The notes under the pieces are model-generated. The model did no database searches and was not told the DNA's origin. It saw nothing but the letters and a program-made list of their open reading frames with translations. A stretch of DNA of 64,000 nt from a virus. Both the position numbers and the translations under genes were made by a program. Within the stretch, counting starts at the first letter, position 1. Every line of letters begins with the position of its first letter. The stretch covers positions 64,001 through 128,000 of the IMG/VR virus record IMGVR_UViG_3300044684_000278; one strand, given 5' to 3'. This document shows positions 2,166 to 49,546 of this stretch, piece by piece.

Positions 2166-3321
2166 AACTTGAGTTTATTAATTTGATTGATTCTTCCAGG
2201 TCTGCTGCAGTAACTCCCTTAGGAGTTTTCTTGGTAGTAGTCATCCTGGTCAGGGCTTTGCGTACAGCACCTTTGGCAATGGCTTCCACCATAGCTCCCG
2301 ATACTTTACTCTTACAGGGAAGACTAAATAACATATCAGCTCCTTTGATGGCCAGGTCTTCTACCTTGTCATGGCATTTTACCTTCTTAAGGTGGATCTC
2401 AAAGATCTCCTTGGTATCCGGATGATCCGGACGGTTGATGCCAATCTTCAAGTCTATCCTTCCTTCCCGGACAATAGCCTCATCCAGCGCATTAGGGAGA
2501 TTAGTGGCCAAAATGAAAATCGGGTTGTGCTCTTTTTCCAGTCCGTCCATTTCTGAAAGGAACGTAGGCACAATGGTCATCTCCACGTCTGATGATTTAC
2601 CGCTGCCTCTCTGACGGAGCAGGGCTTCTGCTTCATCCATGAAAACAACAGCACGCTGGCCGGTCTTTTTACAGTACTGGCGGGTAGCATGAAACATGTG
2701 GGCTACTTTCTGCTCTGCCTCACCTACGAACTTGCTCAGCATCTCTGCCCCTTTTACGTAAACAAAGGCTGCGGGATCCACTTTTGTGGAACCAAGGATC
2801 GTAGAGGCAATGGCTTTACCGATCAGGGTCTTGCCACATCCCGGAGGACCATAGAGTACCAGGCCGGGAAAATCTCCCAGACCCATCTCTTTTGCCAGCT
2901 CCTGGTGTTTCAGGGGCAGCTCAATGGCTTCACGGATGTTGCTTAACTGTGATTTAAGTCCACCGATCTCATTCCAGTCAATCAGGTTGAAATGAGGAAT
3001 GTCAGTTACTTTCTCCAGCTCTTTGGGAACCACGGCAATGATGGCGGATCCAATACAGATCACCTCTGTTCCCGGCTCAAGAATTTGGGTAATAGGGTCT
3101 CCGAAGATAGGCTCTTCATTCAGGAACATAACCGTTCCGTTTACCCGGTAATACTGGGCATTGTTATGAACAAAAGGGCCAGCTACAATGGTGTGTACTT
3201 CTTTTTTCTCACCAAGGAACTGCTCCAGCATCTGCTCATATTTATCAACCTGCTCTCTGAGGGCTGATAATTCGTCTGTTGGGGCTACGGGAGCCTCAAA
3301 TGTTGCTTCTTCCTGAAACAT
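2152..3321 (-). CDS. AAA+ ATPase, ARC/Mpa (proteasomal ATPase)-like
   Basis: Likely start MFQEE (3321); N-terminal coiled coil, IGGL...IREAIELP, Walker A GPPGCGKT, pore loop KFVGE, Walker B VFMDE, RGSGKSSDVE, second region of homology ATN...LDEAIVREGRID. Confidence 0.85.
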   Translation of the reverse strand: MFQEEATFEAPVAPTDELSALREQVDKYEQMLEQFLGEKKEVHTIVAGPFVHNNAQYYRVNGTVMFLNEEPIFGDPITQILEPGTEVICIGSAIIAVVPKELEKVTDIPHFNLIDWNEIGGLKSQLSNIREAIELPLKHQELAKEMGLGDFPGLVLYGPPGCGKTLIGKAIASTILGSTKVDPAAFVYVKGAEMLSKFVGEAEQKVAHMFHATRQYCKKTGQRAVVFMDEAEALLRQRGSGKSSDVEMTIVPTFLSEMDGLEKEHNPIFILATNLPNALDEAIVREGRIDLKIGINRPDHPDTKEIFEIHLKKVKCHDKVEDLAIKGADMLFSLPCKSKVSGAMVEAIAKGAVRKALTRMTTTKKTPKGVTAADLEESIKLINSSYAKA

Positions 3322-13646: not shown

Positions 13647-13761
13647 TGGCTGGGATGCCCGGACTCGAACCGGGGACCTTCTGGTAACGTCGGCAATCAT
13701 CTGCAATAGATGAACATCGGAAATGCCAGTTGCTCTATCCCTCTTTCTGAGCTACATCCCA
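13647..13761 (-). ncRNA. 115-nt tRNA-like RNA with a 41-nt insert replacing the anticodon loop
   Basis: TGGGATG/CATCCCA acceptor then G-CCA, GCTC/GAGC D-stem (13-nt loop), CTGG/CCAG anticodon stem, AGGTC variable loop, CCCGG-TTCGAGT-CCGGG T-arm. Confidence 0.85.
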
Positions 13762-21274: not shown

Positions 21275-21281
21275 CTATTAC

Positions 21282-21356
21282 GGGACCTTAGCTCAGAGGT
21301 AGAGCAGCACCCTGTTAAGGTGATGGTCACAGGTTCAATCCCTGTAGGTCCCGCCA
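21282..21356 (+). tRNA. tRNA-Asn(GUU)
   Basis: GGGACCT/AGGTCCC acceptor, loop CTGTTAA, encoded CCA. Confidence 0.92.
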
Positions 21357-22923: not shown

Positions 22924-22967
22924 TAAATTTGTAGAGTTTAAACTTTATAAGTATATTATAGTGTAGG
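22924..22967 (+). promoter_or_regulatory. composite promoter of the late region
   Basis: TAAATTTGTAGAGTTTAAA...AGTATATTATAGTGTAGG, closely repeated at 32664-32701. Confidence 0.6.
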
Positions 22968-22990: not shown

Positions 22991-23428
22991 ATGACAAAAC
23001 AATCCGTACCCACTGAAGCTCCCTCAAGGGAGGATAAGATCACAGCTTTGAAAGAGCAGATCGAGCTAAAAGAATACCAGGTGAAACTGCAGGAGCTTAA
23101 CACCAAGCTGGCTGTTTTCCGTGCAGATGAACTGGAAGCCTTTGCTAAAATTGCCCACTATTCCAAAAGTGCCCAGCCGGGACAGGGTGACGTGGTAGAA
23201 CATACCGTCACAGAAGCAGACCTCCAGAACAACCCTGAGATGATCGAGATGGGCATCAAAGTGGGTGACAGGATAGGCATACCTACTGCAGCCTATGACG
23301 CTTTCCTGAATAAAGTTGACCAGACAGGTCAGGACCTCCAAAAAGAATACATCAGTGAAGAAGCCAAAGCCGAAGCCACTGAAAAAGTTGAGGCCACTGA
23401 GCGCAAGCTGAAGGTGGTCAAAGACTAA
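22991..23428 (+). CDS. hypothetical protein
   Basis: 145 aa, coiled coil plus HTVTEADLQNNPEM..GIKVGD.I motif. Confidence 0.8.
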   Translation: MTKQSVPTEAPSREDKITALKEQIELKEYQVKLQELNTKLAVFRADELEAFAKIAHYSKSAQPGQGDVVEHTVTEADLQNNPEMIEMGIKVGDRIGIPTAAYDAFLNKVDQTGQDLQKEYISEEAKAEATEKVEATERKLKVVKD

Positions 23429-23525
23429 AGAGCTTTCCCGGAGCCAGGGGGAAACAACCAACTGAGCATGTTTAAAGGAGTTAAGGATTAAACAGATACT
23501 TATCTCCTGGTTACCGGGAAAATAC

Positions 23526-23681
23526 TGTAGGGTGGTGAAATTGGCAGACACACCGGATTGTCTATCCGGCATTTGATACACAGTGCGTTCTTTAAAAGCT
23601 ATCATCCATTAATATGCATTTGTTGTTTTATTCCCTCTCCCTGTATCAAATATGCTGGTTCGAGTCCAGCCCCTACAGCCA
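23526..23681 (+). ncRNA. 156-nt tRNA-like RNA with giant variable arm (nominal anticodon GUC)
   Basis: TGTAGGG/CCCTACA acceptor then G-CCA, class II-type D-arm GTGAAATTGGCAGACAC, CCGGA-TTGTCTA-TCCGG, 10-bp variable stem ATTTGATACA/TGTATCAAAT closing 61 nt, GCTGG-TTCGAGT-CCAGC. Confidence 0.85.
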
Positions 23682-23735
23682 AAGCGGATCAAACGTGTAG
23701 TAACCGCAGGAGTCCGGACTCCACTACACTCAAAT

Positions 23736-23807
23736 AGCGGGGTAGAGCAGCGGTAGCTCGTGGGTCTCATAATCCCAAGGTCGTGAGTTCGAATCTCACC
23801 CCCGCTA
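23736..23807 (+). tRNA. tRNA-Met(CAU), initiator-like
   Basis: AGCGGGG/CCCCGCT acceptor, GAGC/GCTC D-stem (A11-U24), TGGGT-CTCATAA-TCCCA. Confidence 0.88.
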
Positions 23808-23832
23808 CACCAAACCAAGAACCAATGACGTA

Positions 23833-24195
23833 ATGGCCACTGTAAACCAAGTTGAGAAACGTGTGAAAATGAATACGTGGGAGATCATAAAATACCAGAT
23901 CCTGACCCACTGTTACTTAAATAAGATCCAGGTGAGTGATGCTGACCTGGAATGCCTGACCCTTCTGAGCGTGCTGGGAGAACAAGAGCTGACTACTTTC
24001 TGCACAGAAGTACACAACAGGAAGATCTTCCGGTCTCCCCAGACCGTGAGGAACGCTTTAAGTAAAGCAGAGAAGAAACATCTCATCGTAAAAGAGGGCC
24101 GCACCAAGAAACGGATCCATATCAACCCCCGTATCAGCGTGCAGACCGCAGGTAACATTATGTTGGACTATAAATTCCTGGCCCTTGCGTCCTAA
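23833..24195 (+). CDS. winged-HTH-like protein
   Basis: 120 aa, SPQTVRNALSKAEKKHLIVK helix-wing pattern. Confidence 0.65.
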   Translation: MATVNQVEKRVKMNTWEIIKYQILTHCYLNKIQVSDADLECLTLLSVLGEQELTTFCTEVHNRKIFRSPQTVRNALSKAEKKHLIVKEGRTKKRIHINPRISVQTAGNIMLDYKFLALAS

Positions 24196-48314: not shown

Positions 48315-49544
48315 ATGATTCCAACCCGTTCCAATCTCCCTGAAAGGGGGTGTTCTCCGGTATCCTCTAACTGTGTCACATGGCAGGGCCCATGCCTTAC
48401 CTGTATTGGAGTCAATACGGGGGACAGTGTCTCTGATGTGGTAGCAGCCCTTGCCCAGCAGGTTTGCGAACTGCTGGATACGCTAAACATCACGGATCTG
48501 GATTTCAAGTGCCTGGTGGACAGTTCCCTGACCACTGGTGCTCCATCCAAGAACCTTTCTACTGCTATCACCCTTCTGATCAATAAAGTCTGCTCCCTGG
48601 AGGATGCCATTGGTGCCCTTGGAGGCAGTACGGCTACTCCTGCAGAAGTCAATGTAAACATTGCATCCTGCTTCCAGGTTACAGATACCAATGGAGATAC
48701 AGTAACCACACTTGGTATCTCTGATTACGTTAAAGCCATTGGTAACAAAGTATGTTCCCTGGCTTCCACTGTAACCGCACAGGGTAACACACTGACCAAC
48801 CATGAAGGAAGGCTCTCCACCCTGGAAAATAAAGAGAGCAGCACCACACTCCCCACCGTTGCTCCAGGATGTCTGGCTACCAGTTCCACTCCCATCGCAC
48901 TGGATAGTGCTGTGGAGGAACTGATCACCCAGTTCTGTGCCCTGCAGACAGCTACCGGAAAAGGTGCTGACCTGTTGGGTGCCGTATCAAAGCAGTGCGC
49001 TAACATAAACTCAGATACCCAGCTCTCCGGATCCGGGAACATGAGTGCTATCAGTGGCTGGAAATCTGCCCCCGCAACGGTTGCGGATTCCCTGAATAAT
49101 ATGTGGCTGGCTATCTGTGACATACGTGGTGCTGTAAAAAGCGTGATGACCTGCTGCAAGAAAACCTGTGCAGATGTGATTGTGAGCTTCGTTGCTAATA
49201 TCACAGACAATGGTGCCACCCTGAAATTATTTTTCTCCGGTTATACTTTTATTCCGGATGGATTCTCAGACTGTTCTGTAAATGGGGCCAAACTAACTAT
49301 TACTGATGGTCTTGGTGGAAGCTATACCACGTATATAAAACTTGCTACTGCTGCTGCATCTACTGATCCGATAAGTATCAATGTTGCTTCTACACCATTA
49401 AGTCCTACCGGTAACTATAGCCTGACTTTAGACAGCTGCTTAACCGATGGTACGCTCACCTGTAATAAATCTGTAGTTGTATCGGTTACTGGTACTGCCC
49501 TAAGTTGTAATGCTCCTTCTAATGTAACTGCCACTCTTGCATAA
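48315..49544 (+). CDS. Cys-rich structural protein
   Basis: CSPVSSNCV.WQGP..C..G.SVSDVV..L...VC helical repeats. Confidence 0.75.
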   Translation: MIPTRSNLPERGCSPVSSNCVTWQGPCLTCIGVNTGDSVSDVVAALAQQVCELLDTLNITDLDFKCLVDSSLTTGAPSKNLSTAITLLINKVCSLEDAIGALGGSTATPAEVNVNIASCFQVTDTNGDTVTTLGISDYVKAIGNKVCSLASTVTAQGNTLTNHEGRLSTLENKESSTTLPTVAPGCLATSSTPIALDSAVEELITQFCALQTATGKGADLLGAVSKQCANINSDTQLSGSGNMSAISGWKSAPATVADSLNNMWLAICDIRGAVKSVMTCCKKTCADVIVSFVANITDNGATLKLFFSGYTFIPDGFSDCSVNGAKLTITDGLGGSYTTYIKLATAAASTDPISINVASTPLSPTGNYSLTLDSCLTDGTLTCNKSVVVSVTGTALSCNAPSNVTATLA

Positions 49545-49546
49545 CA

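Follow-up and report, generated by a model that had tools for sequence, protein, structure and literature searches.

A giant-armed GUC tRNA-like RNA of a probable Bacteroidota phage: a divergent member of an uncatalogued family and a possible asparagine carrier

Class II tRNAs carry variable arms of roughly 10-25 nt, and the discriminator A73, which is essential for LeuRS, is expected of class II tRNA-Leu and tRNA-Tyr. Here we describe a tRNA-like RNA of 156 nt that has a much longer arm. Its gene lies on a 64,000-nt stretch of DNA from a soil phage, called the window in the following, which spans positions 64001-128000 of an IMG/VR virus record; the whole record measures 136,320 bp and has direct terminal repeats. 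As far as sequence comparison can tell, the RNA is a divergent member of a large uncatalogued family of Bacteroidota and their phages. We tentatively read the gene as functional and the RNA as a tRNA-shaped aspartate acceptor which GatCAB could convert to an asparagine carrier; we would put this reading somewhat short of an even chance.

A precedent for a tRNA as amino-acid carrier outside decoding is the non-proteinogenic tRNA-Gly of Staphylococcus, which serves cell-wall synthesis. That tRNA, in contrast, is of ordinary size and shape and has no link to amidation or to AsnC. In Deinococcus, AsnRS and GlnRS are present and the tRNA-dependent pathway serves asparagine synthesis; Thermus is a further case of tRNA-dependent asparagine synthesis. 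The five genomes bearing our RNA that were tested likewise have AsnRS and GlnRS. In its body the window RNA resembles class II tRNA-Leu (RF00005), with which it shares the cloverleaf, acceptor and T stems of 7 and 5 bp, a 3-bp D-stem, the 18-mer GGTGAAATTGGCAGACAC of the D-arm and an extra arm in the variable region. It differs from tRNA-Leu in having G73 instead of A73, U1-A72 and the loop sequence GUCUA with U37, and it is missed by ARAGORN at default settings. The arm measures 85 nt here and up to ~95 nt in parsed family sequences, far beyond the class II range given above.

Three further systems have to be compared. The tRNA-Asn of the transamidation route, which uses a non-discriminating AspRS and GatCAB (PMC1635274), has U1-A72 and G73 in common with our RNA, and the family was found only in genomes with GatB. 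The family differs from tRNA-Asn by a GUC instead of a GUU anticodon, by its class II body and U37, and by a bacterial gene that stands alone beside an asnC-like gene. The allo-tRNAs of Mukai et al. (PMC5389517) also combine a long arm with a GUC anticodon and are found in bacteria and in phage tRNA clusters. According to that paper their acceptor and T stems measure 8/4 or 9/3 bp, whereas covariation gives 7/5 here and our arm is far longer. The phage tRNAs of PMC10264068 are likewise encoded in phage arrays and have non-canonical loop positions. The proposal made there concerns normal decoding tRNAs and accounts neither for chromosomal copies linked to AsnC nor for U1-A72.

The gene, its structural elements and the neighbouring tRNA gene are located in the window as follows.

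23526-23681, plus strand: whole tRNA-like RNA gene, 156 nt including the encoded CCA
23526-23532, plus strand: 5' strand of the acceptor stem, UGUAGGG (U1, G2), pairing 7/7 with 23671-23677 (CCCUACA), with U1 opposite A72
23535-23551, plus strand: D-arm of the tRNA-Leu type, GUG-AAAUUGGCAGA-CAC, with a 3-bp stem (23535-23537 with 23549-23551) and the 11-nt loop AAAUUGGCAGA
23553-23569, plus strand: anticodon arm CCGGA-UUGUCUA-UCCGG, stem 23553-23557 with 23565-23569, loop 23558-23564
23571-23580, plus strand: 5' strand of the extra-arm stem, AUUUGAUACA, pairing 10/10 with 23642-23651
23581-23641, plus strand: interior of the extra arm, 61 nt; in the predicted fold 23582-23588 may pair with 23615-23621 as an inner hairpin, and a pyrimidine tract occupies 23621-23641
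23642-23651, plus strand: 3' strand of the extra-arm stem, UGUAUCAAAU, partner of 23571-23580
23654-23670, plus strand: T-arm GCUGG-UUCGAGU-CCAGC, read from the sequence and the Rfam alignment
23671-23681, plus strand: 3' strand of the acceptor stem, CCCUACA, followed by G73 (23678) and CCA (23679-23681)
23736-23808, plus strand: tRNA-Met(CAU), 55 nt downstream of the 156-nt RNA, found by ARAGORN and Rfam (67.6 bits)

An earlier note, made from the letters of this DNA alone, had described the acceptor, a D-arm of Leu/Ser type, the T-arm and a 10-bp stem closing 61 nt, and each of these features is found where it had been placed. Its claim of a GUC anticodon in a loop with a non-canonical U37 can be read directly from UUGUCUA, that is, U33, G34-U35-C36, U37 and A38. 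U33 is kept, and position 37 is a U where canonical tRNAs have a purine. The inner stem which the note had drawn within the arm (AGUGCGU/AUGCAUU) is possible as well, as its seven pairs, two of them G-U, are present in the constrained fold, and the pyrimidine tract lies at 23621-23641. In the window RNA all 30 counted pairs of the five helices are intact. The variable region extends from the anticodon stem to the T stem (23570-23653) and comprises ~84-85 nt, outside both the canonical 4-5 nt of class I and the range of class II. When positions 23400-23850 were searched alone, RF00005 matched with 39.0 bits (E 7e-7; gathering score 29) and took 85 nt as an insertion in the variable region; an Rfam search of the whole window at the gathering score and ARAGORN at default settings both missed the RNA. 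The minimum free energy of the unconstrained 156-nt fold is unremarkable (z = -1.0), so that the support for the structure comes from comparative data. The extra sequence is located in the variable region and not in the anticodon loop. A reading by ARAGORN -i as tRNA-Thr(UGU) with a 76-nt intron was rejected because it requires mismatches in the anticodon stem; the cloverleaf drawn without an intron is perfect and agrees with the family. ARAGORN -m found no tmRNA, and Rfam gave no match over the element to tmRNA, tRNA-Sec or any other known RNA family apart from tRNA.

The D-arm 18-mer belongs to an ordinary tRNA-Leu in 99 of 119 viral matches typed by ARAGORN; one match is an 85-nt 'Asp(gtc)', and several of the 19 untyped ones show the same odd features as the window RNA. 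For the family search, the D-arm was joined to GTCT at the loop position, a pattern that forces GTCT. It matched 30 stretches in IMG/VR and at least 120 in one-genome-per-species bacterial contigs; among the bacterial matches listed, nearly all belong to Pedobacter, other Sphingobacteriaceae or Sphingobacteriales. Six matches in other phyla were set aside as chance since they could not be parsed and had no model match at the pattern site. Parsing yielded 92 distinct sequences of 92-162 nt. The features of the family are the Leu-type D-arm, U1-A72, G73 followed by C74, a GUCU anticodon loop and an extra arm of 12-95 nt. In each of 98 distinct family sequences G73 is followed by a C. Of 80 bacterial sequences 30 encode the CCA end, as do 2 of 18 viral ones, and position 33 can be U, C, A or G. 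Nearly all other members have C38. The window RNA keeps GUCU and carries A38 in place of the family's C38; among the class II members seen, A38 occurs otherwise only in the copy of L352/L468.

Two models place the window RNA within the family. Covariance model R2 was built from 16 chromosomal Bacteroidota members only, with the window sequence excluded, and scores the window RNA at 76.4 bits (E 6e-21). As ordinary tRNAs in the same sources reach at most 32 bits, membership by core is solid. Model R1, which gives the window RNA 92.7 bits, was used independently of the GTCT pattern on a phylum-wide sample of 151 Bacteroidota genomes. There it found 16 copies, all of which have U1, G2 and G73, with the loops GUCUC (13), GUCCC (1) and UUCUC (2). 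The last two are tandem copies in one genome (G143; L287:1501-1610 and 1723-1831), whose loop CUUUCUC provides UUC, a Glu-type anticodon, in place of GUC; they keep U1-A72, G73 and the adjoining AsnC-like gene. Rfam holds no entry for the family and gave no match over the copies in L273, L279, L283, L290 and L352. Literature listings and abstracts contained no description of it, and blastn of the 156 nt against cultured phages returned only short tRNA-Leu-like or T-arm pieces.

We then turn to the comparative evidence on structure. Alignment A1 contains 29 representatives and covers the acceptor, D, anticodon and T helices together with the first four pairs of the extra arm. In it 97.6% of the cells are paired and 18 of the 24 pairs have changed on both sides. 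These values were not attained in any of 500 shuffles, and pairing fell to 47-58% when the 3' partners were shifted by 1-3 columns. The 7-bp acceptor stem and the 5-bp T stem are both backed by covariation. The first four pairs of the 10-bp stem of the window RNA stand in register with the arm-base helix of the family, which covaries at 4/4 pairs. U1-A72 and G2-C71 are invariant (29/29). By this comparative evidence, selection acts on the cloverleaf and on the base of the extra arm, and as far as the aligned sequences go the constants of the family are U1-A72, G2-C71, G73-C74 and G34-U35-C36-U37. Two local deviations were seen in A1. Copies of the Pedobacter type (e.g. L145, L147) have U opposite U at the central position of the anticodon stem (columns 30/42), where 15 of the 29 representatives are unpaired and the window copy is fully paired. 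The phage long-form copies L022, L124, L133 and L137 have one extra bulged nucleotide in the 5' strand of the T stem (column 143).

The conserved identity marks of the family are not those of SerRS. The serine charging contemplated in the earlier note is thus disfavoured, as the conserved marks are of the AspRS type (G73, G34, U35, C36 and, in nearly all other members, C38; PMC9976931) combined with U1-A72. PMC9976931 names G73, G34, U35, C36 and C38 as strong Asp determinants and G1-C72 as strictly conserved in bacterial tRNA-Asp. According to the same source and to PMC1635274, U1-A72 confers amidation of Asp-tRNA(Asn), and G1-C72 and U20a block amidation. The window copy has four of the five Asp determinants, A38 standing for C38, and U1-A72 replaces G1-C72. 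With regard to the marks for GatCAB, U1-A72 is present and the D-loop has 11 nt and is of the Leu type. In five loci (L129, L133, L138, L141 and L143) the RNA is accompanied by a normal class I tRNA-Asp, whose loop is CUGUCAC.

In bacteria the gene has a recurrent neighbour. Among the matches listed, 105 of 111 bacterial loci carry ~213 nt upstream, on the opposite strand and thus divergent, a gene for a protein of 158 amino acids with AsnC/Lrp ligand-binding and helix-turn-helix domains. The best NCBIfam match of this protein is AsnC with 180 bits, which is below the cut-off of 227 bits; the next family scores 72 bits. None of 74 bacterial copies has another tRNA within 500 nt, as against 12 of 17 distinct viral copies. 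In the phylum-wide sample, R1 finds the RNA in 14 of the 151 genomes, and two more (G051, G067) hold a copy cut by the contig end beside the AsnC-like gene; the AsnC-like gene lies alongside the RNA in 8 of the 14 loci. An AsnC-like orthologue (E <=1e-35) is present in 30 of the 151 genomes, including all 16 that bear the RNA, and GatB was found in each of these 16. In the remaining 14 genomes with the orthologue, GatB and the RNA were both not found. Among the genomes with GatB, regulator and RNA therefore occur together in 16 of 16 cases, and neither was found in the rest. This co-occurrence is to be taken as a pattern and not as a statistic; the groups are probably clades. Both GlnRS and AsnRS are present in all five RNA-bearing genomes tested, and GatCAB is therefore not needed there to charge tRNA-Gln or tRNA-Asn. 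AsnA occurs in 4 of the 151 genomes, none of them RNA-bearing. Five GatB-positive genomes without the RNA gave no family member even at E 1e-6. Near one Pedobacter RNA/asnC locus we also noted two near-threshold matches to the Flavo-1 RNA (RF01705), at L273:2383-2450 (minus strand) and 2981-3046 (plus strand), with 35 and 40 bits against a gathering score of 42; both lie within 2 kb of the locus.

A distinct role linked to asparagine is suggested by the invariant U1-A72, the tie to the AsnC-like gene, the restriction to genomes with GatB and the coexistence with a normal tRNA-Asp. We suggest that the RNA could act in the following steps. The window RNA would be transcribed with the neighbouring tRNA-Met and trimmed to its CCA end by tRNA-processing enzymes. 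The host AspRS would charge it with aspartate through the determinants G73 and GUC. GatCAB, recognizing U1-A72, would then amidate the RNA-bound aspartate to asparagine. From this point the RNA would be an amino-acid carrier for asparagine supply, largely apart from routine decoding, and the phage copy would be free of the AsnC control that governs the host copy. No AsnC-like protein was found among 10 window open reading frames scanned against PHROGs, which included both frames flanking the RNA, and Asn_synthase and class IIb synthetase domains were not found in the phage. A wider proposal is more doubtful than the reading of the single gene. Bacteroidota might possess a dedicated non-decoding cofactor of tRNA shape under AsnC control, on which aspartate, loaded by an ordinary AspRS through the GUC anticodon and G73, is converted to asparagine by GatCAB through U1-A72. 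Their phages, the crAss-like window phage among them, might carry deregulated copies as auxiliary metabolic RNAs that boost the asparagine supply of the infected cell.

Several points weigh against the carrier reading. GatB is above the cut-off in 126 of the 151 genomes anyway, and four of five GatB-positive genomes without the RNA have GlnRS and AsnRS as well. An AsnB-family gene is above the cut-off in 11 of the 14 RNA-bearing genomes; these genomes therefore do not depend on the RNA alone for asparagine. Where the AsnC-like gene occurs without the RNA, no asparagine synthetase was seen among 10 upstream open reading frames (10/16 loci); these code for HemD, FKBP, saccharopine dehydrogenase, an endonuclease-family protein, a methyltransferase, an amidohydrolase and one protein without a Pfam match. 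AspRS as a class II enzyme approaches the tRNA from the side of the variable region, where a long arm might be in its way. The determinant C38 is replaced by A38 in the window copy. U37 alone is no proof of a role outside decoding, because many class I phage tRNA(GUC), which presumably decode, have U37 and A38. The Leu-type D-loop may also contain an extra nucleotide resembling U20a, which would be unfavourable, as U20a blocks amidation in tRNA-Asp (PMC1635274). Finally, all the steps, from transcription and processing to charging, amidation and asparagine release, are inferred. The identity rules for Asp and Asn applied here come from model organisms.

Among the alternatives, an odd-shaped working tRNA-Asp for phage translation is a serious rival, which we consider less likely than the carrier reading. 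Such a tRNA would be charged with aspartate by AspRS and read GAC and GAU, and its U37/A38 loop may resist an anticodon nuclease or a modification-dependent toxin. The window RNA lies within a tRNA cluster, none of the nine tRNAs that ARAGORN finds in this phage is a class I tRNA-Asp, and class II tRNAs with long arms are known to work on ribosomes. Changes in the anticodon loop of phage tRNAs have been proposed to evade host tRNases (PMC10264068). The anticodon arm also speaks for decoding. Of 120 metagenome matches to the window's 17-mer CCGGAUUGUCUAUCCGG, 74 lie in class I Asp(gtc) tRNAs (58 distinct) and 46 outside any tRNA; of 21 IMG/VR matches, 16 lie in class I tRNAs, as typed by eye. 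The 17-mer is found in one other class II member, the 96-nt RNA of L352/L468. The phage of that RNA additionally encodes a class I tRNA-Asp (loop CUGUCUA), and its terminase is only 30% identical to that of the window phage. We note that this arm, with U37 and A38, is shared by many class I tRNA(GUC) genes on at least three backbones (L293-L412 in the metagenomes and L452-L471 in IMG/VR). U37 is rare overall (12 of 1192 ARAGORN tRNAs of viral loci), yet clearly recurrent in phage tRNA(GUC), and the window copy may have taken over its anticodon arm by recombination or reached it by convergence. A decoding tRNA-Asp is opposed by the rarity of U37 and by the five loci that already hold a normal tRNA-Asp beside the RNA. 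It is further opposed by U1-A72, invariant in the family, as against the G1-C72 of bacterial tRNA-Asp (PMC9976931), by position 33, where U is not kept across the family, and by the bacterial copies, which stand alone beside the asnC-like gene with no tRNA within 500 nt in any of the 74 cases.

Less probable is a functionless or decaying copy, that is, a host tRNA-like gene picked up by the phage and drifting, with an arm inflated by insertions. The related phages are informative here. Records with a terminase 68-70% identical to that of the window phage carry the RNA in a length of 119 nt (G163, G167, G168) or 95 nt (G165, G172). In G168 and G172 it is encoded just upstream of the terminase gene, and likewise in G163 if L037 starts at the first base of the contig. 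The complete relative G001 (64-66% identical over two pieces) has no copy. We aligned the window RNA with the four most similar phage copies (L037, L099, L131 and L042), of which only L037 and L131 belong to records whose terminase is related. None of the 20 core pairs is lost in any of the five sequences, 100% of the cells are paired, and 9 of the 20 pairs have changed on both sides. These compensated stems argue against a pseudogene, so that the corresponding remark of the earlier note, which had relied on the intact stems, is borne out. A decaying gene would be in keeping with A38 in place of C38, with the loss of the arm motifs described below, with an R2 score that is the second lowest of eight phage members scored and with the missing gene in G001. 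The 30 intact pairs, the compensation relative to copies from phages with a 68-70% identical terminase and the retention of the family-constant nucleotides tell against it. As an aside, the terminase match in G165:C1:30392-33658 is interrupted: residues 10-501 and residues 494-743 are matched ~1 kb from each other in one open frame of 1095 amino acids, which suggests an inserted element such as an intein.

Slightly less probable again is a decoy or sponge, a look-alike of tRNA-Asp or tRNA-Asn that would, in the infected cell, sequester a host defence nuclease directed at tRNAs or keep AspRS or GatCAB occupied. The tRNA shape, the Asp-like loop with non-canonical positions and the frequent occurrence in phage tRNA arrays would suit this role. 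We know of no tRNA-Asp-specific nuclease in Bacteroidota, and no defence or nuclease gene is linked to the RNA in the loci looked at. Phage tRNAs do counter tRNA-cleaving defences (PMC11555353 and PMC10264068), but counter-defence leaves the chromosomal bacterial genes of the same family, with their AsnC link, unexplained.

The extra arm itself varies strongly. In the five aligned phage sequences it measures 12, 26, 50, 50 and 85 nt and cannot be aligned. The long-form arms of the bacterial and some phage copies consist of a 4-bp base helix, a 3-bp helix, the internal loop GAAAUAAA / CUAAY, an 8-bp helix with strong covariation and the apical GGGUUGACCAC. These motifs (GAAAUAAA / CUAAY and apical GGGUUGACCAC) are absent from window positions 23570-23653, and several other phage copies also lack them. 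A mobile insertion or miniature inverted-repeat element was rejected, as the 136-kb phage genome contains the 85-nt arm only once. A guide RNA was rejected as well, since the pyrimidine tract has no complement of at least 11 nt elsewhere in the phage genome and its 10-mers occur at chance level. We read the 85-nt arm of the window as a hairpin which sits at a tolerant site and has expanded in this lineage, and not as a conserved domain or cargo; the window copy is a maintained gene with a fast-changing giant arm. A tRNA scaffold displaying a guide or aptamer, with the 61-nt interior as the active part, had been proposed in the earlier note; the structured long-form arms with their covarying helices and motifs and the perfect 10-bp stem of the window arm would suit it, but we regard it as improbable because the window arm lacks every bacterial long-form motif, is not repeated in the phage genome, offers no complementary tract there, has no Rfam match and cannot be aligned to the arms of 12-50 nt in the other phage copies.

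The terminase of the window phage is ~25% identical to those of crAss-like phages, and all named hosts among the matches are Bacteroidota. This points to a host among the Bacteroidota, a call at phylum level only. As to a possible assembly artefact, the 156-nt sequence is found identically in a second IMG/VR record, a near-identical sibling phage (L002/L109). It is also present in two 136-kb Logan contigs, both from one sample, which is possibly the source of this DNA. The downstream tRNA-Met(CAU) is probably on the same transcript as the RNA. A scan for promoters of the sigma-70 type gave chance level only, and the Bacteroidota -7 motif TANNTTTG is not enriched in the window (31 found versus 44 expected). 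One copy of TANNTTTG is at 22924, ahead of the open reading frame upstream of the RNA. In the tRNA array further upstream, the sibling phage has two extra genes, for Phe-GAA and Tyr-GUA (L002:1272-1444), relative to window positions 21275-21282.

Two further elements of the phage genome deserve mention. A second odd tRNA-like gene is located at window positions 13647-13761 on the minus strand, with the acceptor UGGGAUG/CAUCCCA (U1-A72), G73 and an encoded CCA. Its D and T arms are normal, and ~41 nt stand in place of the anticodon loop; ARAGORN -i reads it as Ala(ggc) with a 26-nt intron. Its U1-A72 and G73, as in the RNA at 23526, are marks typical of tRNA-Asn and tRNA-Gln. Outside the window, at ~49510-49545 of the phage's own genome, there is a lone 3' fragment of a gene of the tRNA-Asp type, comprising the T-arm GCGGG-UUCGAGU-CCCGU and the acceptor strand CCGGUCC, followed by G and C.

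In summary, and irrespective of function, the variable arm of a tRNA can reach ~95 nt with the core under selection, and genes of this family are missed by the standard tRNA finders and by Rfam. In addition, UUGUCUA, a second unusual anticodon arm, turns up widely among the tRNA(GUC) genes of phages. As members of the family occur in cultured hosts, e.g. Pedobacter, direct testing is possible. If the carrier reading is true, this RNA gene would be a metabolic cofactor and not an adaptor, a tRNA-shaped platform for making asparagine which bacteria place under an amino-acid regulator and of which phages carry copies. The presence of GatCAB in many Bacteroidota that also have GlnRS and AsnRS would then be explained, and an RNA would join the auxiliary metabolic genes of phages.

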